This document shows, piece by piece, positions 29,592 through 50,890 of a DNA stretch of 64,000 nt. The translations under genes and the position numbers were made by a program. Source of the DNA: Escherichia coli (lineage in GTDB: Bacteria > Pseudomonadota > Gammaproteobacteria > Enterobacterales > Enterobacteriaceae); NCBI GenBank assembly GCA_902499925.1, contig GCA_902499925.1_4130.1, one strand, 5' to 3'. The first letter of the stretch is position 1. Each line of letters opens with the position of its first letter. The notes below the pieces were generated by a model. It did not search any database. It worked only from the letters and a program-made list of their open reading frames with translations, and was not told the DNA's origin.

Positions 29592-29619
29592 AGGGACTCC
29601 ATTAAAAATAATATCAATC

Positions 29620-29650
29620 ATATAATATACAATTCATATAAAAAGTCAAT
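29620..29650 (-). promoter_or_regulatory. Candidate sigma70-like promoter reading into family B array
   Basis: Minus-strand TTGACT, ~17-nt spacer, TATTAT/ATTATA just upstream of gene start 29591; approximate. Confidence 0.35.
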
Positions 29651-29840
29651 AACATTTTATTAGTAATACCCCTTTATCGAAGTCGCTAAGGTTACCCGCC
29701 CTTTAGCCCCCTACGCATTTTGCCATAGTCCAATCCCTTTTTATTCATAAAAGTCAAGGGATTACCTATGCATTTTTTTAACGCTGAAATTTAAAAATGC
29801 CTTGACTTTTTTATGATTCAGTACTAAATCCTTTTACGCA

Positions 29841-30050
29841 TTAATCCTTCGTTACGCTTACGATTATCTGTGTATCCCCATAGTCCTGCCATACTTCCAC
29901 GCCAGCCGCCGCCCTGGTTAGTCGTGCTGTCATCTGCTTAATGGTCTTAGGCTTTAGTGGAACCTGTTGCAGTACTGTACGCATAGCACTATCGACGTTA
30001 TCATGTACGCCTGCAATAGTGCCTAGAACGTTGTATACTGTATAGATCAT
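29841..30050 (-). CDS. Hypothetical protein
   Basis: 69-aa ORF; AGGAG upstream; composition shifts to higher G+C here. Confidence 0.6.
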   Translation of the reverse strand: MIYTVYNVLGTIAGVHDNVDSAMRTVLQQVPLKPKTIKQMTARLTRAAAGVEVWQDYGDTQIIVSVTKD

Positions 30051-30118
30051 GTGTATGTACTCCTGATATAGTTAAGGCCGCTAGAGAGCGGCCTATGATG
30101 TTTGATGATGTGTAACGC

Positions 30119-30520
30119 TTACAACCCTAAGATAGTACGTGCTTCGTTGCGTTCCGTCCACAACTGCATGATGTGAGCAAGTAAGTCCTTGCTAATGTAT
30201 CCGGTGTTCATAGCTTCACGGATAGATACATCATAAGCACCGAAGCCAGTGCGAACGATACGCACATCATTCAGGTTAGTGTTATAGATACCGCCGAGAT
30301 CAACGGCTTCGAATACTGCATCAACAGAATATTCATTGTTGCCATCGTTGAAGTTTTCCAGTGCAATAGTATTGGATACCGCCCAACGTTTGCAGTTTCC
30401 AATGATGCGGCACTGTTCCGGTTGGATAGTGCCATTACTTACAGCGTACTCCAGTGCATCTTTACCAAAAGTCCGAGCCAGTACTAAAACGTCAGCGAAG
30501 GAAGTGATTGAGAAGGTCAT
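30119..30520 (-). CDS. Hypothetical protein
   Basis: Start set at ATG 7 nt after TAAGGAG; track N-terminal extension is the promoter/hairpin read through. Confidence 0.7.
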   Translation of the reverse strand: MTFSITSFADVLVLARTFGKDALEYAVSNGTIQPEQCRIIGNCKRWAVSNTIALENFNDGNNEYSVDAVFEAVDLGGIYNTNLNDVRIVRTGFGAYDVSIREAMNTGYISKDLLAHIMQLWTERNEARTILGL

Positions 30521-30540
30521 GATAAAACTCCTTAATTTAG

Positions 30541-30610
30541 GAGGGAGAACCATTTCCCCCTCTCTATGTAAAACATTATACATGAATCTAAGTACTATGC
30601 AAGTACTTTT
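30541..30610 (-). promoter_or_regulatory. Promoter (TTGCAT-N16-TATAAT) plus 5' leader palindrome
   Basis: Minus-strand reading: AAAAAGTACTTGCATAGTACTTAGATTCATGTATAAT then GGGGGAAATGGTTCTCCC then TAAGGAG. Confidence 0.55.
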
Positions 30611-30942
30611 TACATTTTGATACCTGGATTCAGGTAGCGGTGAGATCCATATTCTGGATCGGTTTCGGCCCAGTACTGTAAATCTATAGTACCTTTAGCG
30701 TTAATCTTGTCTACCAGCTTATTCATCTTAGCGTATACTACATCAGCATCGATGCGTTTAAAGCCAGTGGCTTTAGTGAAGTAGTAGTGATTTGCTTCAC
30801 TATCATTAAGGATGTACCGAGCACCGTTTGCCGTTTGTGCAATAATGATTGAGTATTCTACGTTACGGTCGAGGCCGTCAATGAATACAGAGGAAACATT
30901 AGTACGGATGAAAGCTTTAACGATAGCGATTGAAGTAGTCAT
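30610..30942 (-). CDS. Hypothetical protein
   Basis: 110-aa ORF; upstream TTGACA-N17-GATAAT and AGGAG. Confidence 0.7.
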   Translation of the reverse strand: MTTSIAIVKAFIRTNVSSVFIDGLDRNVEYSIIIAQTANGARYILNDSEANHYYFTKATGFKRIDADVVYAKMNKLVDKINAKGTIDLQYWAETDPEYGSHRYLNPGIKM

Positions 30943-31094
30943 TTTGAATCTCCTAACTTTGTGGGCCGTCGCACCGTTGCCGCCCTACGAGATACATTAT
31001 CGCAGTACTGATATACTTTGTCAATACTTTTTTATTAATAGTTTCCACTCCACCAGCAGATAGTTACTCACCGTTATTAACTATATATTTTGGG

Positions 31095-31180
31095 TACACC
31101 TATGCACCCTGTGGGCTAGTTTTTGTCTATGCGTATATAATAGCAAAGGGACTGACCGGAGTCAATCCCTTTTTTTATTC
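31095..31180. repeat. Copy A of ~90-bp intergenic repeat (GCACCCTGTGGGC motif + AAAGGGACTGACCGGAGTCAATCCCTTTTTT hairpin)
   Basis: Near-identical copies at ~33350, ~36615 and ~40624. Confidence 0.6.
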
Positions 31181-31187
31181 TTTTTTG

Positions 31188-31388
31188 TTAGATGATTCTC
31201 CAATCATCAACGATCATGGTAAGATACCGAACCAGTGATCCGAGTGATTCGTGTTCTCGATAGTCTGCCGCTCCACCAGCGGTACAAGTACAGCCGATTA
31301 AGCCGTTTTGTAGTTCCTGGATCTTTACGTCGATCTGGTTGGCTTTAGCTTCTTTCAGTACTTCAACCAGGGCGATAGCGATAGACAT
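31188..31388 (-). CDS. Hypothetical protein
   Basis: 66-aa ORF with own promoter and leader hairpin. Confidence 0.65.
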   Translation of the reverse strand: MSIAIALVEVLKEAKANQIDVKIQELQNGLIGCTCTAGGAADYREHESLGSLVRYLTMIVDDWRII

Positions 31389-31410
31389 AATGTTTTACTC
31401 CAAACTATTG

Positions 31411-31472
31411 GCGGGAGAACTATTCCCCCGCTCTATGTAAAACATTATACATTACTGGTTAGTACTGTCAAA
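31411..31472 (-). promoter_or_regulatory. Promoter (TTGACA-N16-TATAAT) plus leader palindrome GGCGGGAGAACTATTCCCCCGC
   Basis: Read on minus strand immediately upstream of gene start 31388. Confidence 0.55.
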
Positions 31473-31478
31473 TAGTTT

Positions 31479-31736
31479 TTATGAAATATCTTCGATGTAG
31501 TCGGCCCATTTCATTTTTTCAGTACTGTCAATGGCGACCGGATTATTTGGATCAAACCATTCACCATCACCGCAATACATACCCACGGCTACGGTTTTAT
31601 AGCCATCCTGGGCCGCACTCCACGACATTGCACGATAGATATGGCCTTTAACTGGTTGCAGTACTGGTAACGTTTTATGGTCTTCTACGTAGGCCATAGC
31701 TTGAGGATTTACCCGATATTGTGTGAACTGATCCAT
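31479..31736 (-). CDS. Hypothetical protein
   Basis: 85-aa ORF. Confidence 0.65.
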   Translation of the reverse strand: MDQFTQYRVNPQAMAYVEDHKTLPVLQPVKGHIYRAMSWSAAQDGYKTVAVGMYCGDGEWFDPNNPVAIDSTEKMKWADYIEDIS

Positions 31737-31812
31737 TATGTTTCCCCTTGTAGTTAGTAAAGTTATTACATCAGTACTATCAAGCTATGTCAATAGTACT
31801 GAAATAAAACTT

Positions 31813-32037
31813 TTAGATTAGATTATTGAGGCCGTCAATGGTAGACTCACTTTCTTCTTTCTCCCATTGTCGGTAGTACTTCCATGCTTCATGATAGGTG
31901 GCGATTAGTTCATCTTTTTGATCCTGGTTACATGCCAGTACTGAATCACGGTGAGCGGTGTTATAGATAGAATCGAATGATTTCTTCTCTTCTGCCAGGT
32001 TAGCTACTTCCCGCATCAGTTCATCAAAGTTAGCCAT
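31813..32037 (-). CDS. Hypothetical protein
   Basis: 74-aa ORF; leader palindrome GGGGGAGGATATCTCCCCC upstream. Confidence 0.65.
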   Translation of the reverse strand: MANFDELMREVANLAEEKKSFDSIYNTAHRDSVLACNQDQKDELIATYHEAWKYYRQWEKEESESTIDGLNNLI

Positions 32038-32104
32038 TTTATTACTCCTTTTAGTGGGGGAGGATATCTCCCCCTATGCAAAACATTATACGCTTTATTC
32101 AGTA

Positions 32105-32368
32105 CTATGCAAGTACTTTTTTCATATAAAGATTATATTCTACACCGCCGTAACCTTCTACGATGATATGTTTTGCGTTATCACGTTTGCATATAGTAAA
32201 GGCATCGTTGACGTGTTTTGCATTTTCCAGGGCAACATCGCCGATAGCGGCACATACTGAACTAATAACGATATTCCGCAAAGTACTGGTATCATTAGCG
32301 GTCATAGTAGTTTGCAGTACTACGTTGTCGTATACGTGTGCATTGATAGTGATTTCGATAGTGTTCAT
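32105..32368 (-). CDS. Hypothetical protein
   Basis: Start set at MNTIEIT preceded by AGGAG; track extension MFYIERGKWF... is the translated promoter/hairpin. Confidence 0.7.
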   Translation of the reverse strand: MNTIEITINAHVYDNVVLQTTMTANDTSTLRNIVISSVCAAIGDVALENAKHVNDAFTICKRDNAKHIIVEGYGGVEYNLYMKKVLA

Positions 32369-32455
32369 GGTGTATCTCCTGGACTTGAGGGGAAACCATT
32401 TCCCCCTCTCGATATAAAACATTATACGTTAATCTAACTACAATGCAAGTACTTT

Positions 32456-32647
32456 TTAAATTTTATTTCCGATATAGTCCGGTCTATTCTTTTCGGTCAT
32501 ACGCTTTGCTAATGATTGCATATGGCTTATTGCGTTTAATGTGTCTTCCTCCAGGGATGAATCAACATAATCAGGATCATTCTTCACCTTGCAATGATTA
32601 TGATATCGTAGTACTGCCAGTACTTTTTTAACTTCTTCAACTGTCAT
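32456..32647 (-). CDS. Hypothetical protein
   Basis: 63-aa ORF; ATGA overlap with upstream gene. Confidence 0.6.
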   Translation of the reverse strand: MTVEEVKKVLAVLRYHNHCKVKNDPDYVDSSLEEDTLNAISHMQSLAKRMTEKNRPDYIGNKI

Positions 32648-32916
32648 AATAAGTATTCCACTTCGTTAGCTTTCAGGTTAGTATCAATCATCAGTGGATT
32701 TTTGTAGTTCACAAAACGAGTAGTTTTCTCGATAGCGAATCCCATATAATCCAGCTTACTAACAGTACATTCATTCTTAAAAACTTCTTTCGCTGCATCG
32801 ATGGCTGATTGCATGGATAACCGCCCATCTAAGTTAATATTTCCAAATGATCCACCAGCAGAAGTAGGATTACCGTTCATATCTTTAATGATCATAGTAG
32901 CGGAGTAGCTGGACAT
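32644..32916 (-). CDS. Hypothetical protein
   Basis: 90-aa ORF. Confidence 0.65.
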   Translation of the reverse strand: MSSYSATMIIKDMNGNPTSAGGSFGNINLDGRLSMQSAIDAAKEVFKNECTVSKLDYMGFAIEKTTRFVNYKNPLMIDTNLKANEVEYLL

Positions 32917-32937
32917 AATTTTGTTTCCTTTTAGTAT

Positions 32938-32997
32938 CGGGGAGAACTATTCTCCCCTTGATGTAAACTATTATACAGTACTAATATACTTTGTCAA
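32938..32997 (-). promoter_or_regulatory. Promoter (TTGACA-N16-TATAAT) plus leader palindrome GGGGAGAA-cta-TTCTCCCC
   Basis: Hexamers and perfect 8-bp inverted repeat read directly upstream of gene start 32916. Confidence 0.6.
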
Positions 32998-33000
32998 TAC

Positions 33001-33222
33001 TTAATTACGTTTAAAATGATATGTGCCTTTATCATCCTGTACGCCCCATACTGATTTACCATCAACACCAGTGAAACCGGATTGTAATTCAATATGGAAA
33101 CCATTATTATCAACTACAAAAACTTTTTTATTTTCATCCCGATAACATTGATATTCTGAATCAACATTAAAGGCCGCATCATTCAGAAGATTGGAAGCGT
33201 AAATGCAAGTCATTGTAGTCAT
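33001..33222 (-). CDS. Hypothetical protein
   Basis: Start set at MTTMTCIY after AAGGAA. Confidence 0.65.
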   Translation of the reverse strand: MTTMTCIYASNLLNDAAFNVDSEYQCYRDENKKVFVVDNNGFHIELQSGFTGVDGKSVWGVQDDKGTYHFKRN

Positions 33223-33349
33223 GATTTTATTCCTTAATATACCAGGGAGAACCATTTCCCCCTCTCGATATAAAACATTATACTTGATTCTAAGTACAAT
33301 GCAAGTACTTTTTTAAAAATAGTTTTCAGTACTGAATACTTATATAATA

Positions 33350-33438
33350 TATACACTTCCGCACCCTATGGGTCAGTGAGTTATCTCTCAATGAATATAT
33401 AATAGCAAAGGGACTGACCGGAGTCAATCCCTTTTTTA
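33350..33438. repeat. Copy B of ~90-bp intergenic repeat
   Basis: GCACCCTATGGGTCAGTGAG...TATAATAGCAAAGGGACTGACCGGAGTCAATCCCTTTTTT. Confidence 0.6.
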
Positions 33439-33445
33439 ATCTTTT

Positions 33446-34030
33446 TTATCGTGTTACCTTACTTGCTTCTACATCACGCTTTTTATAGTACTGATTCCAG
33501 ATATTGCGGGTTAAACCGTAATCAAGTACTTTAATAAGTCCATTACGATCCTGGCCGATATTCTGTTTTCTGATATCTCTTATCGTTAGTGTTGATAATG
33601 TATCATCAACGTGTTGTAGTGCATCAGCAAAGCGGTGCTGGCGTTCGATTGCATTACGTTTAATATTGTACTTTAATTCGTTGCACGCGTTAACGTGCTT
33701 CACACTGCCTTTACTTGCAGTACTCAACCGATCCATAACGATAAACATATTATCAGGATCGCATAAATGCATATGCACCTTTGCAAAGTACTGTTTCAAC
33801 TGAGGGCGGTCATAGTCTAAAAAATTCCATACCTTACATTCAGTTTCATTTTGTTCTACACCCGCATCACAATTCGCGACCTTAATCACTAACCGATCAT
33901 TTAAAGCGAAAACTATACGGGAAGAACCAGCACCGATGATCTCCAGGCCAGCTAACCGACAAGCTGAAAGGATCTCTTTGTTGGTTTCCATTTCTGACAG
34001 TGTACGGATGAATTTAGTATAATTACGCAT
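33446..34030 (-). CDS. Putative Ser/Thr protein kinase-like protein
   Basis: Gly-rich loop 'GAGSSRIVF', 'VIKVAN', catalytic-loop-like 'RDIRKQNIG' and DFG-like 'LDYGL'; start at MRNYTKF after GGAG. Confidence 0.6.
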   Translation of the reverse strand: MRNYTKFIRTLSEMETNKEILSACRLAGLEIIGAGSSRIVFALNDRLVIKVANCDAGVEQNETECKVWNFLDYDRPQLKQYFAKVHMHLCDPDNMFIVMDRLSTASKGSVKHVNACNELKYNIKRNAIERQHRFADALQHVDDTLSTLTIRDIRKQNIGQDRNGLIKVLDYGLTRNIWNQYYKKRDVEASKVTR

Positions 34031-34061
34031 TGTTTTATCTCCTTGAGTTAATGAAACTATA

Positions 34062-34304
34062 TTACAGTACTTTACTATCAATGGCAACTACTTTTTTAAC
34101 ATTAACGGCGTGGATCACTTCCTTCGTGTTTTTAGTACTGAATACTTTCGCCGCACCATTCACGACCGTGATACGATAGCGACCATTAACATCAACCATA
34201 TTAATAAAGTCCGGCGTGCTGAATGGTGTTGTTTTACATTTCAGTACTGTTAACAGTTCCACCAGCGATGTAGTTTCTTTGATACGTTTTTCTAAAGTAA
34301 TCAT
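34062..34304 (-). CDS. Hypothetical protein
   Basis: Start at MITLEKRIKE; track ORF begins at a TTG inside the upstream leader. Confidence 0.6.
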   Translation of the reverse strand: MITLEKRIKETTSLVELLTVLKCKTTPFSTPDFINMVDVNGRYRITVVNGAAKVFSTKNTKEVIHAVNVKKVVAIDSKVL

Positions 34305-34361
34305 TTTGTTTCCCCCGTGTTGGTATGTACATATAGTACTAAAACATTTGAGTACTGTCAA

Positions 34362-34580
34362 TTAGATAATATTATATTTCTTAAAATAAAATGCGTCCTG
34401 TGTTGGTTGATACTCGATACCGTTACCGTTATTGACTTCAACTAATAAACCTTTGTCAATAAGTTTTTTAATAGTACGATACCCTTGTTGAAAATTGGTA
34501 AAATGTGAATCATTACGAAAGGTATAACCGTGCTTAACTGCTTCATCAATAGTTTTCTTTTCGATTTTAGATAATTTCAT
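34362..34580 (-). CDS. Hypothetical protein
   Basis: Start at MKLSKIEKK; upstream leader duplicated from the previous gene. Confidence 0.6.
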   Translation of the reverse strand: MKLSKIEKKTIDEAVKHGYTFRNDSHFTNFQQGYRTIKKLIDKGLLVEVNNGNGIEYQPTQDAFYFKKYNII

Positions 34581-34633
34581 TTTGTTTCTCCCGTGTTGGT
34601 ATATGTACATAGTACTAAAACAATTGAGTACTG

Positions 34634-34888
34634 TCAACGTGATATTAGTTTTATTTTCTTATTATATTGTTGGTGTTCATATAGGTTTATCTTTCCTGTG
34701 TTCTCTATTACTATTCTGTTGTTAGTGTCTACATCGATTACACGCAGTTTTCCGTTGCTTAACTTCCTTGGTAATAGGTTACCATTAATAAACTCATTAG
34801 CAAGCTGTACGGCCTTTGTGATGATTCTCTGAGGTGCTTTATAGTGTACCCGCAAGATATTATCTTTATATAGTTGAACCTTAATCAT
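34634..34888 (-). CDS. Hypothetical protein
   Basis: 84-aa ORF directly after a terminator hairpin. Confidence 0.65.
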   Translation of the reverse strand: MIKVQLYKDNILRVHYKAPQRIITKAVQLANEFINGNLLPRKLSNGKLRVIDVDTNNRIVIENTGKINLYEHQQYNKKIKLISR

Positions 34889-34902
34889 TTTAGTTTATCC
34901 TA

Positions 34903-34928
34903 TAAAAAAGGCGGGAACTGATCCCGCC
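34903..34928 (-). terminator. Rho-independent terminator
   Basis: GGCGGGATCAGTTCCCGCC followed by TTTTTT on minus strand. Confidence 0.6.
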
Positions 34929-34950
34929 GTGTTGTTAGTACTGCAAGTTA

Positions 34951-35346
34951 TTAGATAACCTGGCGGCGTTTACTGTATACTGTTACACGATTACCCTTAC
35001 GGTCGTGTCGGATCTCTTTCTGGTTGCGAATCAGTTCACTTGGACGCTTAAGGTTTGCCAGGTGATCCGCGTGAGTCCAAGCGGTATGGTTTACCTGTAC
35101 TTTGATATCAGAACCAGCGATAAACTCATCTTGTGCGTTAAGTACTGCCGCCAGATCTTCCGCTCGTTTTAGTTCTGCTGCTGTTAGTACTGGCTCAGGT
35201 GAATTCACAATATCAGAGATCTCTTTGAACTGTACGGCCCAACGTTGGCCTTTCGGTGCATCTTTGCCCATGTCTTTAAATGCTGCTCCTTCCTCGCGTG
35301 CAACAATACGGGCAGCTTCACGGGTAGCGTAGAATTTAGTAATCAT
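34951..35346 (-). CDS. Hypothetical protein (paralog of 47602..47865)
   Basis: Shares 'YFATREAARI...FKDMG' and 'DRKGNRVTVY' with 47602..47865; start at MITKFYATRE after AGGA. Confidence 0.65.
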   Translation of the reverse strand: MITKFYATREAARIVAREEGAAFKDMGKDAPKGQRWAVQFKEISDIVNSPEPVLTAAELKRAEDLAAVLNAQDEFIAGSDIKVQVNHTAWTHADHLANLKRPSELIRNQKEIRHDRKGNRVTVYSKRRQVI

Positions 35347-35441
35347 GGTATACATCCTATTAGTTAAGTTAGTACTACAAGTTAGAGTCTATTATAAAGT
35401 ACTATCTGGGCAATGTCAAATAGTACTTTAAATGGATTCTA

Positions 35442-35765
35442 TTACATGTCTTTCTTACGTTTTACATCGTAGTAGCGAACTGTTATTTCTTTGTTAATCT
35501 CTTTTTCGATGTGGTGAATAACTTTTTCTTTCGGGTTGAAACCTATAACGGTTTCTTTAATGATCTCCAAACCAGTGTATTCGCCTTGTGTGCCGTAACC
35601 GTATGTAAAGGTTTCATGTCCCAGGTCTTCCCAGCGGTCGCCAATTAACGCAGACACGTAGCAAGAGTGGTAAGTATTGCCGTGTGAATCAGTCCACCGA
35701 TTAACTTTAATGTCAAAGGAGGTTACAATTTTCAATTCTACTTTCTGGGCAAGGATCATAGCCAT
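35442..35765 (-). CDS. Hypothetical protein (paralog of 42290..42613)
   Basis: Shares 'RWTDSHGNTYHSC.VS' and 'FTYGYG' with 42290..42613. Confidence 0.7.
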   Translation of the reverse strand: MAMILAQKVELKIVTSFDIKVNRWTDSHGNTYHSCYVSALIGDRWEDLGHETFTYGYGTQGEYTGLEIIKETVIGFNPKEKVIHHIEKEINKEITVRYYDVKRKKDM

Positions 35766-35852
35766 TTTTATTTCTCTCTTTTAGTTAGGAGGGGAACCAT
35801 TCCCCTCACTTGATGTAAACTATTATACAGTACTAAGATACTTTGTCAATAC

Positions 35853-36035
35853 TTATTTTTTGGAAAGTTTACGCATTAATTCTACGCTTTCTTGTGAACG
35901 TTTTGCTACCTGGCAAGCTGCATGGACAGTAAACATTTTTGTATAGTCTGACGCTTTGCCACCGAACCGAGCGGCACGTTCACGGGCACTTGGAACTAAT
36001 ACTATTTCTTTCTTGCAGATAGTGCACTTAGCCAT
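35853..36035 (-). CDS. Small Cys-rich (zinc-ribbon-like) protein
   Basis: MAKCTICKK...HAACQ; start set 45 nt inside track ORF. Confidence 0.55.
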   Translation of the reverse strand: MAKCTICKKEIVLVPSARERAARFGGKASDYTKMFTVHAACQVAKRSQESVELMRKLSKK

Positions 36036-44478: not shown

Positions 44479-44562
44479 TTGATTATCCTTAGTTACCAGG
44501 GGGAACCGCTCCCCCTTGCGATGTAAAATATTATACAGTTCTAAAAACTATTATCAAGTACT

Positions 44563-44799
44563 TTATGATTTTTTATAAAACATTTCAGCAGTGATATTTT
44601 TACCCGTTGGCTGTACTTTATCCAGGATTTTTTGATGTCCAGGCCGACCAAATGAATATGATCCGTAAACCGTAAACCAGTAGTTACCCTCAGTGTTTAC
44701 ATGTACAGCACAATAAGGAACACCACGCGATTCATCACTAGTAAAGTGTGATACCGTTCCCGTTACATTCGCAGACGTTGATTTGATTTGTTCGAGCAT
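44563..44799 (-). CDS. Hypothetical protein
   Basis: 78-aa ORF with leader hairpin GGGGAACCACTCCCC. Confidence 0.6.
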   Translation of the reverse strand: MLEQIKSTSANVTGTVSHFTSDESRGVPYCAVHVNTEGNYWFTVYGSYSFGRPGHQKILDKVQPTGKNITAEMFYKKS

Positions 44800-44906
44800 T
44801 TTCTTATTCCTTAGTTACCAGGGGAACCACTCCCCTATGCAAAACATTATACGCGTTTAAAAACTAATTGCAAGTATTTTAATAAAAAGTATTTGAAAAA
44901 TAGTTG

Positions 44907-44935
44907 TTGACAAGTGCATCCAGTACTGGCATAAT
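44907..44935 (+). promoter_or_regulatory. Plus-strand sigma70-like promoter (TTGACA-N17-CATAAT) with no downstream ORF
   Basis: Hexamers read on plus strand; followed by CCCACCGGGTGC motif and a hairpin. Confidence 0.5.
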
Positions 44936-44941
44936 TACTAC

Positions 44942-45045
44942 ATAAAGACAAAACAGTCTCTAACCCACCGGGTGCCGAGATCCGTCTATTAAATGATTCA
45001 GTACTGAAAAAGTAACGGGGAGTTATTATCTCCCCGCGTTGTTAT
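44942..45045 (+). ncRNA. Candidate small RNA (promoter-to-terminator unit ~100 nt)
   Basis: Begins after promoter at 44907-44935; contains CCCACCGGGTGC; ends at CGGGGAG-ttattat-CTCCCCG hairpin followed by T-rich tract. Confidence 0.35.
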
Positions 45046-45263
45046 TTGGTAAGGTATAAACAGAAGTCACCTTTATTTGCTACGCCGCCAGTGTAACGCG
45101 ATGAATAGTTAGAAACGTCCTGGACTTCTGCTATTACCAGTGTATCATCATTCATTTCGTCGCAGAAGCAAACGGCTGGATCTTGTACGCCGATTTTGTC
45201 GGCATGTTCCCGCATAGATTTAACCAGTGCTTCCAGTTGGGAAAGAGTAGTGATATTAGCCAT
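45042..45263 (-). CDS. Hypothetical protein
   Basis: Start at MANITTLSQ; track extension is leader. Confidence 0.65.
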   Translation of the reverse strand: MANITTLSQLEALVKSMREHADKIGVQDPAVCFCDEMNDDTLVIAEVQDVSNYSSRYTGGVANKGDFCLYLTK

Positions 45264-45349
45264 TTTATTTTCCTCATTACCAGGGAGAACCATTTCTCCC
45301 TTTGATGTAAACCATTATACAGTACTGAAAACTAATTGCAAGTACTTTT

Positions 45350-45553
45350 TTAATTTAATTGCTTTAAAACATACTCAAAGACACCACGCACATCATTGAT
45401 CATCGCCTGGCGGTTAGCAGGTAACGCATCAGGATCGCCACTATCCCAGGCATTGATAAAACTCCCCAAATCATGATAGATTTTATTCTGTAAGCCGATT
45501 AACTGCAATTCTTTTTCTTCAAGCTCTTTGATACGTTCAATTAAATCACTCAT
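45350..45553 (-). CDS. Hypothetical protein
   Basis: Start at MSDLIERIKE after GAGGA. Confidence 0.6.
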   Translation of the reverse strand: MSDLIERIKELEEKELQLIGLQNKIYHDLGSFINAWDSGDPDALPANRQAMINDVRGVFEYVLKQLN

Positions 45554-45570
45554 TAGATAATCCTCAGTAC

Positions 45571-45855
45571 TTAACTGTAAGATCCGCAACGGTCGCAGTA
45601 GTGCCCGTCCTCGTCATCGTCAACGAATTGACCGACGAAATGATCTACTTTCGCTTTCAGGTTATTATAATCGTTTTCTACTTCCGTTAAACGCTTCTGG
45701 TAGTATTCCAGTGCTTTAAGATATGCCGCATCAGCAGTTTTCTCCTGCATAGCTAAATTCATGCCACGCGTTTCATCGTACAGCCAAAAACCATCGGTGC
45801 ACTCACTGATTGACAATGATTTACTTAACACATTGTACTTTATTACTTTACTCAT
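45571..45855 (-). CDS. Hypothetical protein with C-terminal CxxC
   Basis: Start at MSKVIKYNVL after GAGGA; C-terminal 'HYCDRCGSYS'. Confidence 0.65.
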   Translation of the reverse strand: MSKVIKYNVLSKSLSISECTDGFWLYDETRGMNLAMQEKTADAAYLKALEYYQKRLTEVENDYNNLKAKVDHFVGQFVDDDEDGHYCDRCGSYS

Positions 45856-45911
45856 TAGATAATCCTCAGTAAAGGCGGGAACCATTCCCGCCATTGATTC
45901 AGTACTGAATG

Positions 45912-46151
45912 TTACATTCCAACCATTGCGGCACGGATCGCAGTAGTGCTATACTTGAATCCGTCCGGCGTTGTAGTAGTACCGTTGGCTTTTAATCTGC
46001 GGTACATACATTGGGCCGCAATATCTTTAGTTTTACATTGTGCGATGCAACTTTGAGCAAGCCGATATAATGACTCACCGTTATTAATCCACAATGAAAC
46101 ATTCCAATGAGTTTTGTTTTTGTGCCCGTTGTAAGTTTTAGTACTAGCCAT
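45912..46151 (-). CDS. Hypothetical protein (paralog of 47951..48190)
   Basis: Shares 'GHKNKTHWNVSLWINN' and identical C-terminus 'TPDGFKYSTTAIRAAMVGM'. Confidence 0.7.
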   Translation of the reverse strand: MASTKTYNGHKNKTHWNVSLWINNGESLYRLAQSCIAQCKTKDIAAQCMYRRLKANGTTTTPDGFKYSTTAIRAAMVGM

Positions 46152-46241
46152 TTTTAAATCCTCGTTTGAGCGGGGAACCATTCCCCGCCTCGATATAAAG
46201 TATTATACGCTTTTAAACTTAGTTTGCAAGTACTTTTTGAA

Positions 46242-46853
46242 TTAATATTCGATTGATTCTACTACGCCATCAATAACATTGAATTGATATTCGTTACCCT
46301 CAATCAGTGCCGTAATGTTTTCAGTACTGAATTGATCCTCATATGCATTCTCTAAATCACGGTACAACTTGCGGGATAATTCACGAATAGTTTCAGTGAG
46401 TAGTTCCTCAAGCTCATTAACTAACGTTTCTTGTTTTGCGGTTAAATCAGTGTAAGCCGATTCAATGTACCCGCTTACAGTGTTTTCGTGTGAGTAGCGA
46501 GATTGAGAACGCTTTACACTCATCGCCAAATCATCTTCATTCAGCAGGTGACGGATTGAGCGATACTTAGTTAATGCTCTTACCTTGCGTAAAAACTTCA
46601 CTGCGTCAACGTGGTCAGTACTGATTGATGCACCGTCACCCTGGGACCAAAAACCACTGAATTGTATTTCAGCGTCATTAATGCCATATTCCGGTAATAC
46701 TGTTTCTTTATAGTATTCGATCACTGACTCAGAAAAGAAATCATCCCCGCTTGAACGTTCACGTTCCCGAACCAGTTCGATAGCTGACGTTTTTTGTTCT
46801 GCGTTCAATTCAGAAAAATCCATAACATAAGTAGTAGTAGTGATAGTTTTCAT
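46242..46853 (-). CDS. Hypothetical acidic protein
   Basis: 203-aa ORF; tandem promoters plus structured leader upstream. Confidence 0.7.
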   Translation of the reverse strand: MKTITTTTYVMDFSELNAEQKTSAIELVRERERSSGDDFFSESVIEYYKETVLPEYGINDAEIQFSGFWSQGDGASISTDHVDAVKFLRKVRALTKYRSIRHLLNEDDLAMSVKRSQSRYSHENTVSGYIESAYTDLTAKQETLVNELEELLTETIRELSRKLYRDLENAYEDQFSTENITALIEGNEYQFNVIDGVVESIEY

Positions 46854-46879
46854 TTTGTAACCCTCATTCAGTAGTTGAT

Positions 46880-47035
46880 GTAAGTATTATACGCTTTTAA
46901 AAACATTTGTCAAACTATTTTATCAGGGGAGTTTTTCGTGTGCCTTACTCCTGGGCTACTTAACGGGGAGTTACTTATTTCGTTCCCCGTCCTGATGTAA
47001 AACATTATACGCCTTTAAACATAGTTTGCAAGTAC
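46880..47035 (-). promoter_or_regulatory. Tandem promoters flanking second copy of ~70-nt structured leader
   Basis: Same arrangement and near-identical element as 36424-36600. Confidence 0.5.
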
Positions 47036-47078
47036 TTTTTAAAAATAGTTTTCAGTACTGAATATTAAAAAAAAAGTA

Positions 47079-47107
47079 TTGACAGCATTATCAAGTACTG
47101 GTATAAT
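47079..47107 (+). promoter_or_regulatory. Plus-strand consensus promoter (TTGACA-N17-TATAAT)
   Basis: Followed at ~20 nt by CCCACCGGGTGC; no plus ORF downstream. Confidence 0.5.
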
Positions 47108-47281
47108 ATATCCCATGACAACAGCTAACCCACCGGGTGCACAATTGTAACTATACTAAACTAATTTTTCTATAGATACACTCCCGCACCCTATGGGCTA
47201 CGGCTTATCTGCCAATGAATACATTATGCCAGTACTGACAAAATAAGTCAATACCGGCAATTGTAAAGATTTGTAAACTGC

Positions 47282-47512
47282 TTATACTGCAATCGCGTCC
47301 AGGCTATAATAATAATAAGTGCCGTATTGGTGTACTTTATTACCTTTTATTTCAGTACTGAATGAATCCGAACGATTGGCATATGATGTTAATTTAAAGT
47401 ACTTTGATTTGCTGATACGTTGCCATACACCGCAGATCCGCTGTAAGTAAGTAGTTTTATTAGTGGTAGTATCTTTTACGGTTTTAACTTCAGTCATATA
47501 CATATTGGTCAT
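47282..47512 (-). CDS. Hypothetical protein
   Basis: 76-aa ORF; AAGGAG upstream. Confidence 0.55.
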   Translation of the reverse strand: MTNMYMTEVKTVKDTTTNKTTYLQRICGVWQRISKSKYFKLTSYANRSDSFSTEIKGNKVHQYGTYYYYSLDAIAV

Positions 47513-47601
47513 TTTTTTTTACTCCTTGCTTTAGTGGGGAACTATTCCCCACCTGATATAAAGTATTATACGCTTTTAAACTTAGTTTGCAAGTACTTTT
47601 T

Positions 47602-47865
47602 TTATAGTACTGCTATCTTTTTAGTACGGTACACGGTAACACGATTCCCCTTACGGTCGAGCTTTATTTCTACCACTCGACGCGATACACTAGCAGGACT
47701 TTTCAACGCCGCTAACCAGTACTGTAATGATCTGGCGGTACTACGCTTTACAATGGCCCAACGTTTACCACTTTCCGATTGTACGCCCATATCTTTAAAC
47801 GTTGCCCCGTCCTGGCGTGCGGCGATCCGAGCTTGTTCACGCGTCGCAAAATACTTAATATTCAT
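47602..47865 (-). CDS. Hypothetical protein (paralog of 34951..35346)
   Basis: Start at MNIKYFATREQARIAAR. Confidence 0.65.
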   Translation of the reverse strand: MNIKYFATREQARIAARQDGATFKDMGVQSESGKRWAIVKRSTARSLQYWLAALKSPASVSRRVVEIKLDRKGNRVTVYRTKKIAVL

Positions 47866-47950
47866 GCTGTTGCCCTTATCGTTGGTGTATGAATAAAACA
47901 CTATTATAAAGTACTATCGCAAAAAATGATAGTACTTTAAATAAATTCTA

Positions 47951-48190
47951 TTACATTCCAACCATCGCCGCACGGATCGCAGTAGTGCTATATTTGAATC
48001 CGTCCGGTGTTTTATCTTGTCCAGTCTGTTCTAAAAATAACATCATATGACGGGCCGCATCATTGCGATTAGTGCTATCGTTAATAAAGTCCTGGGCCAA
48101 CCGGTATAATGATTCATCGTTATTAATCCAAAGGCTTACATTCCAATGAGTTTTGTTTTTGTGACCTAAGAACATTTTTGATTTAGCCAT
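47951..48190 (-). CDS. Hypothetical protein (paralog of 45912..46151)
   Basis: 79-aa ORF sharing N- and C-terminal blocks with 45912..46151. Confidence 0.7.
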   Translation of the reverse strand: MAKSKMFLGHKNKTHWNVSLWINNDESLYRLAQDFINDSTNRNDAARHMMLFLEQTGQDKTPDGFKYSTTAIRAAMVGM

Positions 48191-48282
48191 TTTTTAATCC
48201 TCTTATATAGTGGGGAACTATTCCCCACCTGATGTAAAACATTATACGCTTTTAAACTTAGTTTGCAAGTACTTTATTAAAC

Positions 48283-48645
48283 TTATTTGTAAATTTTGCC
48301 ACTGTCAGCCCATACCAGGAAACGATGCATATTATCCCATGCATCTTGTTTTAAATTTAAACCGTGCAATTCCTCAGTAGTTGCCATCCCTGGTACTGGC
48401 TTACTACACACCGCGAAATTTTCTCCCATGTACTGATAAACCATCGTTAAATCATTTGAGATCATTACATGGATCATTGAATCAAGCATCAAAGTAGCGG
48501 CGTATTGTTCACGCTTAAGCGGCAACATTGCAATAAGTTCCCGATAAGCTGCAATGTGAATTTTTACAGTTTCAGCCGGAAGACCTTTCATCTCTTCACG
48601 GAAGTTAACCAGGTTAAGCATGATTTTATTGATTTGAGTCGCCAT
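48283..48645 (-). CDS. Hypothetical protein
   Basis: Start at MATQINKIML; leader palindrome GCGGGAA-gtg-TTCCCGC. Confidence 0.7.
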   Translation of the reverse strand: MATQINKIMLNLVNFREEMKGLPAETVKIHIAAYRELIAMLPLKREQYAATLMLDSMIHVMISNDLTMVYQYMGENFAVCSKPVPGMATTEELHGLNLKQDAWDNMHRFLVWADSGKIYK

Positions 48646-49008
48646 CGTTTTAATCTCTCTTAATGTGTAGCGGGAAGTGTTCCCGCTCTCGATGTAAAAC
48701 ATTATACGCTTTTATCAGTACGGTGCAAGTACTTTCTACAAATACTTTTAAAATAGTTTTCTTTCTATATAGGGGAACTATTATTCAGTACTGCAACCAT
48801 CCAGGGGAACTATCTTTCTATATAGTAGTACTATCATTCAGTACTGAATCAATCCACCAAATCATCCCGATACCCCGTAAAACGGCCTCAGACGCATTCT
48901 AACGCATTAATACACCTAAGCTATACATTTGCACCATTCCAATCATTCCAGGGCTTTACTGGCCGTTTAAACGCGTTAAATTATTTTCAATTATTTTGTT
49001 TTTAGCTA

Positions 49009-49036
49009 TTGACTCAGTACTAAAAAAGCGTATAAT
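49009..49036 (+). promoter_or_regulatory. Plus-strand promoter (TTGACT-N17-TATAAT) in noncoding region
   Basis: Followed by TACTACATAGA...GAGAAAG...GATCCGTCC leader resembling the unit at 44936. Confidence 0.45.
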
Positions 49037-49474
49037 TACTACATAGACGCGAGAAAGCGGATACCCCAGGGGGTGGGAAGATCCGTCCAAAATTCATAAA
49101 ATTTAAAAAGGATACACTCCCGCACCCTAGCAGGTCAAAGCACTTTCTCAGTACTGAAATATAGTACCATAGTCCGGCCCAGGATAGCAAGCAAATTAAT
49201 TAAAACTTTTTGCTTCCAGGGTATTGCTTTATTTTTCCAGTACTGTATAATAGTTCCATCAAGTCGAGAAAGACTCAAGCCCACCGGGTGCATAGTTACG
49301 CCCAAAATTCAGTACTGAAAAAATTTTTAAAAATATCCGTCCAGGCCGTTGACATTGCCCCCAGTTTATAAGATAATGATTCCAGATTCAGAAAAATCTA
49401 ACTCCAGATACTGCGGGGAAACTATCCCCACGCGGTAGGGGAACTATTGGAAAAAACAAAATAAAATTTTGATT

Positions 49475-49620
49475 TAGCCGTCTATACTTCCAGACGTGTA
49501 ACCATCTAGCCGTTTAGCCGTCCAAACGTCTAGCCATCCAGCCATCCAGAAATCTAGCCGTTTAGCCGTCTAGATGGATAGCCATCTTTACTTCCAGACT
49601 TCTGGAGGGCTAGACATATC
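49475..49620. repeat. Cluster of short direct repeats (TAGCCGT / CCATCCAG / TCTAGCC), iteron-like
   Basis: About ten TAGCC(G/A)T-type units within ~150 bp in ORF-free region. Confidence 0.6.
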
Positions 49621-50289
49621 TACGTCCAAAATCCATCCAGGGTAACTACGCCCAAAATCCGTCAGTACTATACCATAGATCTATCTTTTGAAAGGGAGTA
49701 TTCAGTACTGCCATCATAGCCCTCACTATGTTACCCTAGGAGGATGAAGACTATCATGTAGTACTGAATACTGTTAGAGGGAATCCACCAGCTTGTGCTG
49801 GTGGCATAATGCTTTAGATTAAAATCAGTACTGATACCATTCTGTTAATACCAGTACTGTTATTACGATTTTCATATGAGGTTCAAAAAGATGTACCACC
49901 ACAGGAGGAACTATCTTTTCTGTACTGTCTCACGACAGGAGGTAGAGTAAATGAATTGTTCGCAGCAACTCATCTCTCTATGTAGAACATTATACAGTAC
50001 TGAATCATAATGTCAATAACTTTCTTTCACCATTCAGTACTGATATTCTTGAGAACTACCCGACTACAAACATCATTATATCCCACAAATCATAAACGTC
50101 CCAACGTAAATTTCAACTTTCGAAGATCCAACTTTTATTTCATAGGTACTCCAAAATTTTTAGGATCGAGATTTAGGATGGAGTACTAACCAACTTTTTG
50201 CTGGAGCCTCAAGGGGTAATGGAATTTTACCCCGAAGGGTAAAGGGGTAATTGAAATTAAGGTGAAAGTAATAATTCAGTACTAATCAT

Positions 50290-50560
50290 TGCGTGATTAC
50301 TTTTGATTACATTTGATGTAATTTGCAAAATGGAAAAGGAGCTTGGAAACTACAAAGTACGGCAGACTTCCTCTGCCTACTTAGTGGCATATCGACACCT
50401 TCAGTACTGAATACTTTTGGGGCAGTACTGAATCCTTCCCTAGCATTCTTGAGTAATCTTGTCTATAATAATCAGTACTGAATCATATATAATCATTCTG
50501 TGATTCTACGGTGCTCATATAAATGTTTATATATGATTACTTATGACTACATATGATTAC
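50290..50560. repeat. Repeated TGATTAC-type heptamers
   Basis: GTGATTAC...TGATTAC...TGATGTAAT and ATGATTAC...TGACTAC...ATGATTAC read directly. Confidence 0.45.
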
Positions 50561-50683
50561 GGGGTTTAGCCTGGGGAGAATCCTAGTGATCGCATTTGTC
50601 CAGGCTGAATTTTAACATATATAACATATGTTAAAGCCTGTCCAATGCTTTCCCTGCGGAGCTTCCCCTGTCTATATGTTGAA

Positions 50684-50890
50684 TTACTTCCTATATATAA
50701 GCATTAACATATAGTAGTACTGATTATGCTGTACATTCTCTTTAATATTATAAGGGTCTATAGCAATCTCGGTACATCTGTTAAATGCATATCTATTAAA
50801 TGCCAGTACTATTATAGATCTAATCCATGCTTGGTCAGTCGGTGGTAGTTTACTTATATAGTACTCTTTATAATTTTTTATGTTCTGCAT
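50684..50890 (-). CDS. Family C paralog (small protein, N-terminal KEYY...KL motif)
   Basis: MQNIKNYKEYYISKL...YYYMLMLIYRK. Confidence 0.65.
   Translation of the reverse strand: MQNIKNYKEYYISKLPPTDQAWIRSIIVLAFNRYAFNRCTEIAIDPYNIKENVQHNQYYYMLMLIYRK

Follow-up and report, generated by a model that had tools for sequence, protein, structure and literature searches.

The window (the whole stretch of DNA analysed, 64,000 nt of an Escherichia coli assembly, GCA_902499925.1, contig GCA_902499925.1_4130.1) carries a G+C-richer block of small genes between AT-rich arrays of paralogs. Its main features are:

386–23,356, minus strand: dense, overlapping arrays of 100–210-aa paralog families (G+C 0.32, coding density 96%)
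23,308–29,621, minus strand: first array past the end of the putative terminal repeat (DTR), about 28 overlapping paralogs of ~70 aa with an LGTNYQ motif (G+C 0.33)
29,649–29,622: promoter-like TTGACT-N16-TATTAT, just beyond the DTR end
29,686–50,381, minus strand: putative single DTR copy (20,696 bp), homologous to bases 1–20,993 of Escherichia phage fEgEco12
29,841–48,702, all minus strand: 52 small ORFs (47–203 aa, mean ~85 aa; ORF and RBS calls), mostly unique genes
48,750–50,381, no strand: non-coding, terminus-proximal end of the DTR (~1.6 kb, G+C 0.385), with many TCAGTACTGA palindromes and short direct repeats
50,684–55,284, minus strand: array at the putative unique right genome end, about 20 paralogs of 60–75 aa (G+C 0.333)
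55,391–63,870, plus strand: eight paralogs of 360–440 aa, whose fEgEco12 homologues are annotated as RCC1-like 'chromosome condensation regulator'

The G+C content is 0.323 at positions 1–29,650, 0.385 at 29,800–50,200 and 0.343 at 50,700–64,000. The best piecewise-constant fit of three segments to 100-bp bins placed change points at 29,800 and 50,000 (segments of 0.323, 0.386 and 0.344), and the observed variance reduction, used as the test statistic, was reached by none of 200 bin permutations, so the G+C-richer block described in a sequence-only reading of this DNA is real. On the left, G+C jumps from 0.33 to 0.445 inside ~400 bp, a sharp step, whereas on the right it changes gradually (49.8 to 50.6 kb). 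That reading had set the block at about 29.8–48.7 kb; the left limit holds, but the right limit lies further out, at about 50.0–50.4 kb, because the non-coding DNA at 48.75–50.38 kb also has a G+C of 0.385. The term extremely AT-rich, used of the flanks, depends on the reference chosen: set against the genome mean of the related phage TH47, 0.3505, the block differs by about +3.5 points and the arrays by about −2 to −4. Raised G+C is not confined to the DTR, as the region at 300–320 kb of TH47, outside the repeat, is equally G+C-rich (0.377–0.399). The rise sits in coding sequence and at every codon position: block CDS have a G+C of 0.400 (GC1 0.48, GC2 0.34, GC3 0.377), compared with 0.32–0.33 (GC3 0.29–0.32) for CDS of the paralog arrays, and intergenic DNA of the block reaches only 0.343. 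Two G+C-rich runs cited as examples are present, at 29,908 and 30,963, and are hairpin stems.

The ORFs of the block match fEgEco12 genes g01–g056, all on one strand, and since all 52 lie on the minus strand they are all transcribed away from the left terminus of fEgEco12. Cassette content differs from that phage by several single-gene indels and replacements. The flanking arrays at 23,308–29,621 and 50,684–55,284 correspond to fEgEco12 g057 onwards and g596–g613, respectively. Pfam matches among the block ORFs are limited to a DksA/TraR zinc finger, a GNAT acetyltransferase, a weak protein-kinase match, a ParE-like domain and several DUFs, with no integrase or transposase family found; 47 PHROG families are matched, of which the 25 listed are without functional annotation. 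Gene organisation differs between block and flanks, as had been proposed, with coding densities of 73% and 92–100%. Paralogs within the window were found for 6 of 55 block genes (three pairs only), compared with 49 of 85 genes in the left flank and 26 of 28 in the right.

On the gene strand, the block has 42 sigma70-like promoters, 28 of them sharing the core TATAATGTTTTACATC. All 28 conserved cores are inside the block and on the gene strand, and no such core with a −35 element occurs elsewhere in the window; a scan of the complete genome of TH47 gave 19 cores, 17 of them within its homologous region at 85–110 kb. Promoter-like sites number 100 in the block (68 ± 9 in shuffles), including 11 perfect 12/12 sigma70 matches on the gene strand, while 20 kb of flank has 107 (111 ± 10 in shuffles) and one perfect match. 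Many of the promoters belong to repeated cassettes:

30,525–48,746, minus strand: 23 near-identical promoter/5′-hairpin cassettes, consensus AAAAAGTACTTGCA-N17-TATAATGTTTTACATC-(8–10 bp G+C stem)-SD-ATG
Starts of −10 elements, cassettes 1–12, minus strand: 30580, 31449, 32090, 32426, 32975, 33282, 35827, 36098, 37091, 37388, 40121, 40556
Starts of −10 elements, cassettes 13–23, minus strand: 41159, 41388, 42901, 43221, 44535, 44851, 45319, 46207, 47570, 48246, 48706
48,191–48,286, minus strand: representative cassette, aaaGTACTTGCAaactaagtttaaaagcgTATAATgttttACATCagGTGGGGAAtaGTTCCCCACtatataAGAGGattaaaaaATG
31,137–31,172, minus strand: second cassette type, a 12-bp stem-loop overlapping the −35, AAAGGGATTGACTCCGGTCAGTCCCTTT-GC-TATTAT
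33,399–33,434, 36,668–36,703 and 40,683–40,718: further copies of the second type

The order of elements is UP element, −35, −10, a 5′ G+C-rich hairpin and then the Shine–Dalgarno site. The hairpin folds in all 23 cassettes (−11 to −16 kcal/mol, mean z = −3.6 against shuffles), and its stems co-vary, differing in sequence while keeping complementarity. As it lacks a U-tract, a terminator function is doubtful, and transcription may run on from one unit into the next, making the units less than strictly monocistronic. Terminator-like sites in the block (21, with 11.8 ± 3.5 expected) serve a minority of units, and the second cassette type, at 31,137–31,172, scored as both terminator-like and promoter-like. 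Of the suggestion that the block consists of monocistronic units with individual promoters, the promoters thus stand for most units, and terminators exist for few. A difference in expression class between the blocks fits the sequence, with 42 promoters in the block and few in the overlapping flank arrays; the timing would follow from promoter type and from analogy, by which the block genes are probably of the immediate-early class.

In the non-coding end (48,750–50,381), no ORF with a ribosome-binding site was found by ORF/RBS calling, and the corresponding bases 1–1,688 of fEgEco12 have no annotated gene. In this region, CAGTACTG is the centre of repeat families D2, D3 and D6 and of 24 inverted-repeat pairs, and AGTACT occurs 16 times (0.5 expected). 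The same hexamer is 8–15-fold over-represented across these jumbo phages. An 8-bp tandem array of about 12 copies at 49,475–49,573 (no strand; unit TAGCCGTC, or GACGGCTA on the gene strand) is a candidate protein-binding array for packaging or replication.

The sequence of the window from 50,381 to 29,686 aligns contiguously with bases 1–20,993 of fEgEco12 at 96–97% identity, base 1 falling at 50,381 and base 20,993 at ~29,686, and the alignments continue without a break past either junction, into unique sequence of that genome's right end on one side and of its left part on the other. The fEgEco12 DTR (20,993 bp) was determined experimentally by PhageTerm and restriction digests (PMC13070987); in its record, bases 1–20,993 equal 353,741–374,733, and the two copies, compared over 2,260 bp, are identical there. 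Related repeats measure 21,525 bp in vB_Ec-M-J (PMC13070987), 20,668 bp in Sharanji and 22,456 bp in CBB, the last with 51 ORFs and RpoD-like promoters. The G+C change points come within 114 and 381 bp of the ends of the DTR. Very probably, then, the 21-kb G+C-richer block represents one assembled (collapsed) DTR copy of an Asteriusvirus (PBECO4/121Q-type, Rak2-like) jumbo coliphage, in which putative immediate-early cassette genes abut paralog arrays. The apparent coincidence of the block with the ~21-kb DTR of the genome is the main point that the sequence-only reading overlooked. Sequence beyond 50,381 would be the unique right end of the genome and that before 29,686 its unique left part, and the linear virion DNA would, by homology, have the DTR sequence at both ends. 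As a long terminal repeat is a known kind of phage feature, its recognition aids annotation more than it surprises.

The genes of the repeat are widely shared. By tblastn, 26 DTR proteins matched 440 phage records, including Vequintavirinae and Stephanstirmvirinae, and covered 20–34% of Vequintavirus, Phapecoctavirus and Justusliebigvirus genomes, whereas a same-sized query of flank proteins matched 44 records, all of Rak2-like jumbo phages. Homologues in three sampled genomes were found for 15 of 52 DTR genes and 0 of 113 flank genes. Single cassettes show 82–90% DNA identity to Vequintavirus, Phapecoctavirus or Justusliebigvirus. One example, the gene and promoter cassette at 47,279–47,577 (minus strand), is 89% identical to 5,216–5,516 of the Justusliebigvirus 'Campylobacter phage C3', where promoter and hairpin recur in the cassette at 5,203. 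The 146-kb C3 genome contains only two AGTACT sites, both within this common segment, pointing to export rather than import of at least one cassette. Different evolutionary origins of the blocks, as once suggested, are thus borne out at the level of gene pools, DTR proteins occurring in many unrelated coliphages and flank proteins only in Rak2-like ones. Taken to mean a foreign insertion, the suggestion fails, as place, size, gene order and raised G+C are kept in a Klebsiella phage that is only distantly related. Of 32 breakpoints in alignments with fEgEco12 and TH47, 17 are located within cassette intervals, which occupy 22% of the region (for TH47, binomial p = 6e-4), and one gene found only in fEgEco12 is bordered by a 98-bp duplicated cassette. 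The repeated cassettes would provide short homologies for gene insertion, deletion and swapping, both between members of the genus and in exchange with large coliphages unrelated to it.

In the Klebsiella Rak2-like phage, the syntenic block of ~20 kb has the same position, length and gene order, proteins 27–75% identical to those of the window, and a G+C of 0.34–0.38 with a sharp step to flanks of 0.27–0.33. Polarised substitutions gave an equilibrium G+C of 0.376 for the DTR (currently 0.387) and 0.341 for the left flank (currently 0.321), estimates that overlap statistically, being ~1.1 SD apart on substitution counts. Synteny and substitutions near equilibrium together indicate that the contrast is old and maintained, with no recent import.

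The composition step would arise because two kinds of DNA meet where the repeat ends: cassette genes of ~40% G+C, drawn from a diverse and widely shared pool, and lineage-specific arrays of ~32% that duplicate rapidly, each near its own substitution equilibrium. At the physical end would lie the 1.6-kb non-coding stretch, whose TCAGTACTGA palindromes and 8-bp repeats are probably binding sites for packaging or replication proteins, and further inward 52 small genes directed away from the end. Most would have an AT-rich UP region, near-consensus E. coli sigma70 −35 and −10 elements, a G+C-rich hairpin at about +8 to +30 of the transcript, a strong Shine–Dalgarno site and the ORF; the hairpin is unlike a terminator in appearance, and its role is probably to stabilise the mRNA or to mark it. 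The block is most likely an immediate-early 'host-takeover/accessory' module, available to unmodified host RNA polymerase upon entry of either DNA end.

Selection on expression is a possible but less favoured cause of the G+C excess, the codons and amino acids of immediate-early genes, whose translation would have to precede any phage function, being pulled toward the E. coli tRNA pool while weakly constrained arrays follow an AT mutation bias. GC3 is 0.377 in the block and 0.29–0.32 in the arrays, GC1 and GC2 are also higher, consensus promoters and good Shine–Dalgarno sites suggest high expression, both compartments seem near equilibrium, and Asteriusviruses have a few tRNA genes of their own (seven in Sharanji); yet the 1.6-kb non-coding end, beyond the reach of codon selection, is as G+C-rich as the genes (0.385). 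That end is in line with a by-product of recombination, in which DTR copies would recombine or anneal in each cycle, and cassettes often, and GC-biased repair or conversion would lift the whole repeat, coding or not. The step matches the DTR ends within 0.1–0.4 kb and recurs in the distant relative, and the equilibrium estimate is higher for the DTR (0.376 against 0.341), but this difference is non-significant, TH47 has its equally G+C-rich 20-kb stretch outside the DTR, and we know of no demonstration of GC-biased conversion in phages; this cause is rather unlikely.

A recent foreign island, taken from G+C-richer coliphages (rV5-like, ~43.6%; phAPEC8/phi92-like, 37–40%) and not yet drifted to the composition of the genome, is highly improbable. 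It would account for the cassettes 82–90% identical to genes of Vequintavirus, Phapecoctavirus or Justusliebigvirus, for the 15 of 52 genes with homologues there and for the similar G+C of the early regions of those phages (0.405–0.423, near the 0.400 of block CDS). However, position, length, gene order and raised G+C are shared with the Klebsiella phage despite its divergence, the block coincides with a structural feature found across the clade, and AT-to-GC and GC-to-AT changes in the DTR are balanced (177 and 185), which means that its composition is not decaying toward 32%. Genes without homologues in other phage families are equally G+C-rich (0.405, compared with 0.39 for those with them), the AGTACT signature of at least one shared cassette indicates export, and integrase and transposase families are absent from the Pfam matches. 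That the contrast is due to chance fluctuation, or to a few hairpins, terminators and similar G+C-rich motifs acting as an artefact, has a negligible probability. The block was indeed first judged by eye from runs that are hairpin stems, but this reading is refuted by the permutations (0/200), by G+C that is higher in CDS than in intergenic DNA (0.400 and 0.343) and raised at all codon positions, and by the DTR genes without outside homologues, which exceed flank genes in G+C (Mann–Whitney p = 3e-12).

The closest known systems are the Rak2-like DTRs of fEgEco12, vB_Ec-M-J, Sharanji and CBB, which resemble that of the window in length class and in their ~50 small ORFs. The repeat of fEgEco12 is homologous and collinear (96–97%), its ends having been mapped while those of the window repeat are placed by homology, and that of CBB was likewise noted for RpoD-like promoters. 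The composition step, promoter/hairpin cassettes and cross-family gene sharing are not described in the publications consulted on these DTRs, and the word 'promoter' is absent from the fEgEco12 and Sharanji papers. The terminal repeat of SPO1 is, like the window DTR, full of small genes with strong host-type promoters and strong ribosome-binding sites, as is that of T5. The window repeat is longer (20.7 kb, compared with 12–13 kb in SPO1 and ~10 kb in T5), no sequence homology to either was found or expected, and we know of no two-step DNA entry, as in T5, in Rak2-like phages. In SPO1, the products of the small genes in the repeat appear early and switch off functions of the host (PMC6873191); for the window block, early timing is predicted from promoter sequence and analogy.

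The cassettes resemble the PeSL (promoter-early stem-loop) cassettes of T4-type phages RB49/phi1, PST and nt-1 (Arbiol et al. 2010, PMC2839356; Comeau et al. 2014, PMC4122927). Both are composites of an upstream stop codon, an AT-rich tract, a sigma70 consensus promoter, a GGGG...CCCC stem-loop, a Shine–Dalgarno site and a start codon, and both flank small, function-unassigned genes in a variable region, with indel and replacement breakpoints within the motif. The window cassettes belong to another phage group, have another motif sequence and are concentrated in a terminal repeat rather than in internal hyperplastic regions. Their main stem-loop follows the predicted transcription start, whereas PeSL stem-loops precede the start site, lying ahead of the promoter, inside it or immediately after it; the second window type overlaps the −35, as one PeSL subclass does. 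As with PeSL shuffling in T4-type phages, indel breakpoints concentrate in the promoter cassettes.

The sliding-window G+C profile (1-kb, 400-bp) is ~0.32 up to 29.6 kb, rises to 0.44 at 29.8 kb, remains near 0.385 to ~50 kb and then falls to ~0.34. A least-squares fit of three segments to 100-bp bins breaks at 29,800 and 50,000, with means of 0.323, 0.386 and 0.344, and none of 200 bin permutations reached a comparable fit. The composition step proposed by the sequence-only reading is real at both boundaries of the block, and the two G+C-rich runs it quoted were found at 29,908 and 30,963, the latter being a hairpin stem inside an intergenic cassette. The block does not end at ~48.7 kb, as had been proposed, but nearer 50.0–50.4 kb, the non-coding DNA at 48.75–50.4 kb also having a G+C of 0.385.

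By megablast the sequence falls in Asteriusvirus, the jumbo coliphages of the PBECO4/121Q type, with the Escherichia phages fEgEco12 and vB_Ec-M-J as top matches (95–97%). Local alignment of fEgEco12 nt 1–20,993 to the window (50,381–29,686, 96–97%) placed base 1 at 50,381 and base 20,993 at ~29,686. The direct terminal repeats (DTRs) of fEgEco12 are 20,993 bp long, a length found with PhageTerm and verified by restriction digestion (PMC13070987), and in its record nt 1–2,260 are identical to nt 353,741–356,000 (2,260 bp compared). Across the right junction (fEgEco12 nt 353,741), the alignment that begins in the unique right end passes unbroken into the block, and at the left junction the alignment from the left repeat continues unbroken into the array of ~70-aa proteins. 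The mapping is collinear across both junctions, so window 29,686–50,381 (20,696 bp) is, by homology, a single assembled copy of the DTR; the assignment rests on homology to the ends mapped in fEgEco12. The size class also fits, with 20,696 bp and 52 ORFs compared with 20,668–22,456 bp and 51–56 ORFs in relatives (Sharanji, 20,668 bp; vB_Ec-M-J, 21,525 bp, PMC13070987; CBB, 22,456 bp and 51 ORFs). Homology and collinearity with a mapped repeat, junctions, length and ORF count are thus all those of an Asteriusvirus-type DTR, which earlier work describes in the closest relatives. The interval 29,600–50,700, originally delimited by eye, encloses the inferred DTR almost exactly, and the step falls 0.1–0.4 kb from the mapped ends (114 bp and 381 bp). 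Most Asteriusvirus and Rak2-like genomes are deposited with a collapsed repeat and an arbitrary start, and the composition step offers a cheap, sequence-only marker of terminal-repeat boundaries in them.

Followed inward from the physical end, along the − strand of the window, the repeat begins with a non-coding stretch followed by a run of small genes. A simple caller of ORFs and ribosome-binding sites gave 52 credible ORFs in the block.

Features of the repeat, in order from the physical end
50,381–48,750: non-coding end, no credible ORF, many (~20) TCAGTACTGA palindromes
49,994: consensus promoter in the non-coding end, no ORF downstream
49,475–49,573: tandem 8-bp unit TAGCCGTC, ~12 copies, inside the non-coding end
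48,702–29,841, − strand: 52 ORFs of 47–203 aa (mean ~85 aa), all in the same direction
46,919–47,000, − strand: promoter unit without an ORF
43,965–44,049, − strand: promoter unit without an ORF
36,466–36,545, − strand: promoter unit without an ORF

The first 1,688 bp of the fEgEco12 record likewise carry no annotated gene, and the non-coding end may contain sites for packaging or replication, or give rise to a non-coding transcript. Pfam searches of the 52 proteins returned a DksA/TraR zinc finger, a GNAT acetyltransferase, a weak kinase match, a ParE-like domain and several DUFs, and nothing else; as regards action on host processes, these domains are hints only. Matches were found to 47 PHROG families; among the matches listed (25 of the 47), none has an annotated function. 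A promoter-like site (TTGACT-N16-TATTAT; 29,622–29,649, − strand) lies ~40 bp past the inferred DTR end and immediately before the first gene of the ~70-aa array, so that this array may form a separate transcription unit starting at the edge of the repeat. The sign of the GC skew flips at ~50.5 kb, beside the end of the DTR and of the physical genome. Genes remain on the − strand to 55.3 kb, and the array of 60–75-aa proteins (~50,400–55,300) has a skew opposite to that of other − strand genes.

Base composition and coding density of the block and the paralog arrays
Block: CDS G+C 0.400; GC1 0.48; GC2 0.34; GC3 0.377; intergenic G+C 0.343; coding density 73%
Paralog arrays (1–29.65 kb and 50.65–55.33 kb): CDS G+C 0.32–0.33; GC1 0.37–0.41; GC2 0.26–0.27; GC3 0.29–0.37; intergenic G+C 0.30–0.34; coding density 92–100%

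Within the block, CDS are richer in G+C than intergenic DNA (0.400 versus 0.343). The shift therefore lies in the genes, at amino-acid-determining and synonymous positions alike, and hairpins or terminators are excluded as its source. An array of tRNAs or structured RNAs is likewise excluded, as ARAGORN found no tRNA in the window and Rfam gave no match at the gathering score. The arrays in the flanks are genuinely paralogous: a paralog within the window was found for 49 of 85 genes on the left and 26 of 28 on the right, compared with 6 of 55 in the block.

Most of the small genes of the repeat are preceded by a repeated intergenic cassette, in which an AT-rich tract precedes a sigma70 consensus promoter; the aligned cassettes have the consensus AAAAAGTACTTGCA-N17-TATAAT, with TATAAT invariant. 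The 16-mer TATAATGTTTTACATC (three mismatches or fewer) matches the gene strand at 28 places, always between 30,580 and 49,994, while its two matches outside the block both lack a −35 element. In phage TH47, a related jumbo phage, 17 of the 19 core matches in 352 kb fall in the homologous region. A generic scan counted 100 sigma70-like sites in the block compared with 68 ± 9 in shuffles, and 107 compared with 111 ± 10 in 20 kb of flank, where one site was perfect. On the gene strand of the block, 42 sigma70-like promoters match the consensus at 10 or more of 12 positions, and 11 of these are perfect (12/12). Shine-Dalgarno sites in the block are of the AGGAG type.

All 23 cassettes examined carry a hairpin with an 8–10-bp G+C stem, ~8 nt past the ACAT start region (−11 to −16 kcal/mol; mean z = −3.6 against shuffles). 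The stems vary from copy to copy with pairing retained (GGGGAGAA/UUCUCCCC, GUGGGGAA/UUCCCCAC, GCGGGA/UCCCGC and others). None of the 23 main hairpins, which lie downstream of the predicted start, is followed by a U-tract, which favours a 5′-terminal mRNA hairpin, serving to stabilise the transcript or as an element for recognition, over a terminator. In a second type of cassette (n = 4), a 12-bp stem overlaps a TTGACT −35 element. Terminator-like sites are enriched in the block yet few (21 versus 11.8 ± 3.5). Of the organisation suggested earlier, monocistronic units with individual promoters, one promoter per gene is borne out; monocistronic units are not. Each of the three units without an ORF consists of a cassette promoter and ~80 nt containing a long hairpin; a second promoter then follows and drives the gene. 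The three sequences share a weak consensus fold (−9.3 kcal/mol, two compensated pairs) and have no Rfam match; they may be putative small RNAs or leader transcripts.

Alignment to relatives points to the cassettes as sites of rearrangement. The DTR differs from that of fEgEco12 by four single-cassette indels or replacements, and g047, a gene found only in fEgEco12, is bordered by a 98-bp duplicated cassette. Aligned to TH47, the DTR is split into ~14 collinear segments, whereas the left flank, over the first 13.4 kb of the window, stays in one. Seventeen of 32 breakpoints lie inside cassette intervals, which make up 22% of the region (binomial p = 6e-4, TH47 alone).

The repeat also shares genes far more widely than its flanks. 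A tblastn query of 26 concatenated DTR proteins (2,240 aa) matched 440 phage records, whereas a flank-protein query of the same size matched 44, all of them Asteriusvirus or Klebsiella Rak2-like phages. Genomes of Vequintavirus, Phapecoctavirus and Justusliebigvirus cover 20–34% of the 26-protein query at 55–67% identity, and other jumbo phages (Erwinia, Yersinia, Salmonella, Xanthomonas) match it near the start of their own records. In three sampled genomes or regions, homologues were found for 15 of 52 DTR genes but for none of 113 flank genes. Single cassettes are 82–90% identical in DNA to phages of the three smaller-genome genera, Vequintavirus, Phapecoctavirus and Justusliebigvirus. The layout recurs in the early regions of tuntematon and rV5, where each small gene has a single sigma70 promoter, a G+C hairpin at the 5′ end and a Shine-Dalgarno site, in motif variants particular to these phages. 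A hairpin of the Phapecoctavirus type occurs in one cassette of the window, upstream of 30,610–30,942, and one cassette of Justusliebigvirus C3 carries the promoter type of the window.

No hexamer family is more over-represented in the window than the palindrome AGTACT (a ScaI/Eco255I site; 284 versus 21.5 expected, 13-fold), which occurs in all three reading frames, on both gene strands and in intergenic DNA. In TH47 it stands alone among palindromic hexamers (917 versus 119, 7.7-fold; the next is 2.5-fold), and is 15-fold over-represented in the Klebsiella Rak2-like phage OU509535.1 (258 versus 17). In the left-flank arrays there are no sites at 16,000–22,200 and 26,000–29,686, while neighbouring arrays have 10–26 times the expected number; the 75–80 kb bin of TH47 also has none. 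The motif is avoided in Justusliebigvirus C3 (2 versus 49) and Vequintavirus C12 (9 versus 41). Both sites of C3 (MG065656, 146 kb) are inside the one gene-plus-promoter cassette (5,143–5,516) that is 89% identical to window 47,279–47,577, and this position in a common segment suggests that the cassette was transferred to C3 from a jumbo phage. A literature search on AGTACT over-representation in phages found no paper with the motif. MG065656.1, MG065635.1 and similar UNVERIFIED records are labelled as Campylobacter jejuni phages (C3, C12, A150 and others); they are classed as Justusliebigvirus or Vequintavirus and resemble coliphages of 137–146 kb, and their host label is doubtful.

If the block were recently imported foreign DNA, it might be expected to be absent from the same site in relatives and to carry mobility genes. 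It is instead syntenic and G+C-rich in both TH47 and the Klebsiella phage. The unannotated TH47 genome (352,450 bp) has a G+C of 0.3505, its homologous block (85–105 kb) 0.375–0.393 and the adjoining arrays 0.30–0.34. In OU509535.1, with proteins 27–75% identical, a syntenic ~20-kb block at locus 20,000–40,000 has 0.34–0.38 compared with 0.27–0.33 in both flanks, with a sharp step at locus 40,000, beyond which lie homologues of the window's paralog-array families; this block probably marks the predicted terminal repeat of that phage. No integrase or transposase Pfam family was found among the 52 proteins, and no tRNA target in the window. Having homologues in other phage families makes no difference to the G+C of DTR genes (0.39 with, 0.405 without; p = 0.27). 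When TH47 is used as the outgroup to polarise them, substitutions between the window and fEgEco12 are balanced both in the DTR (177 AT-to-GC, 185 GC-to-AT; equilibrium 0.376, current 0.387) and in the left flank (326 and 298; 0.341 and 0.321), so each compartment is close to a steady state of its own. Synteny in the Klebsiella phage, equal G+C and balanced substitutions reject a recent island, and import of this kind is highly improbable.

Higher G+C could come from translational or protein-level selection on early genes, which is possible but falls short of being probable. A recombination-linked bias fits the G+C-rich non-coding end of the repeat, but a cause confined to the DTR is at odds with TH47, where one further 20-kb stretch outside the DTR (300–320 kb) is equally G+C-rich, and we consider such a bias unlikely. 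The two equilibrium estimates (0.376 and 0.341) are only ~1.1 SD apart, so substitution spectra do not separate selection from biased conversion. A broader proposal, tentative and in our view rather doubtful, is that the DTR is a cross-family exchange hub with the early regions of unrelated 135–150-kb coliphages, in which AGTACT would mark the direction of transfer and obligate recombination, not gene content, would set the higher G+C equilibrium. If this were true, promoter/hairpin/ORF cassettes would move between the Rak2-like DTR and Vequintavirinae/Stephanstirmvirinae. The sharing itself ties jumbo phages to smaller coliphage families.

The terminal repeat of T5, packed with small, strongly promoted early genes, is a classic case of such an arrangement. 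That of SPO1 is similarly packed (PMC6873191). The block shares with these host-takeover modules its location in the terminal redundancy, by homology to a mapped DTR, and its small genes, whose host-sigma promoters and ribosome-binding sites are strong; the ~50 small genes are likely to be the immediate-early host-takeover set of this 350-kb phage. Current views are not overturned, as early-gene terminal repeats are well known from T5 and SPO1 and that of the closest relative has been published. In the literature consulted, we found no description of a composition step at repeat boundaries, of a conserved cassette family in Asteriusvirus, or of the extent of sharing with Vequintavirinae/Stephanstirmvirinae. 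In T4-type phages, promoter/stem-loop cassettes are recombination sites (PMC2839356, PMC4122927), and excised mini-circles formed by them are described. Like these promoter-early stem-loops (PeSLs), the block has a repeated intergenic sigma70 promoter with an AT-rich tract and an adjacent stable stem-loop (GGGG...CCCC is typical of PeSLs), and variable small genes flanked by the motif, with indel and replacement breakpoints inside it. It differs in belonging to a Rak2-like jumbo phage, and in motif sequence and hairpin position, so that PeSL-like modular shuffling extends beyond the T4-type phages.
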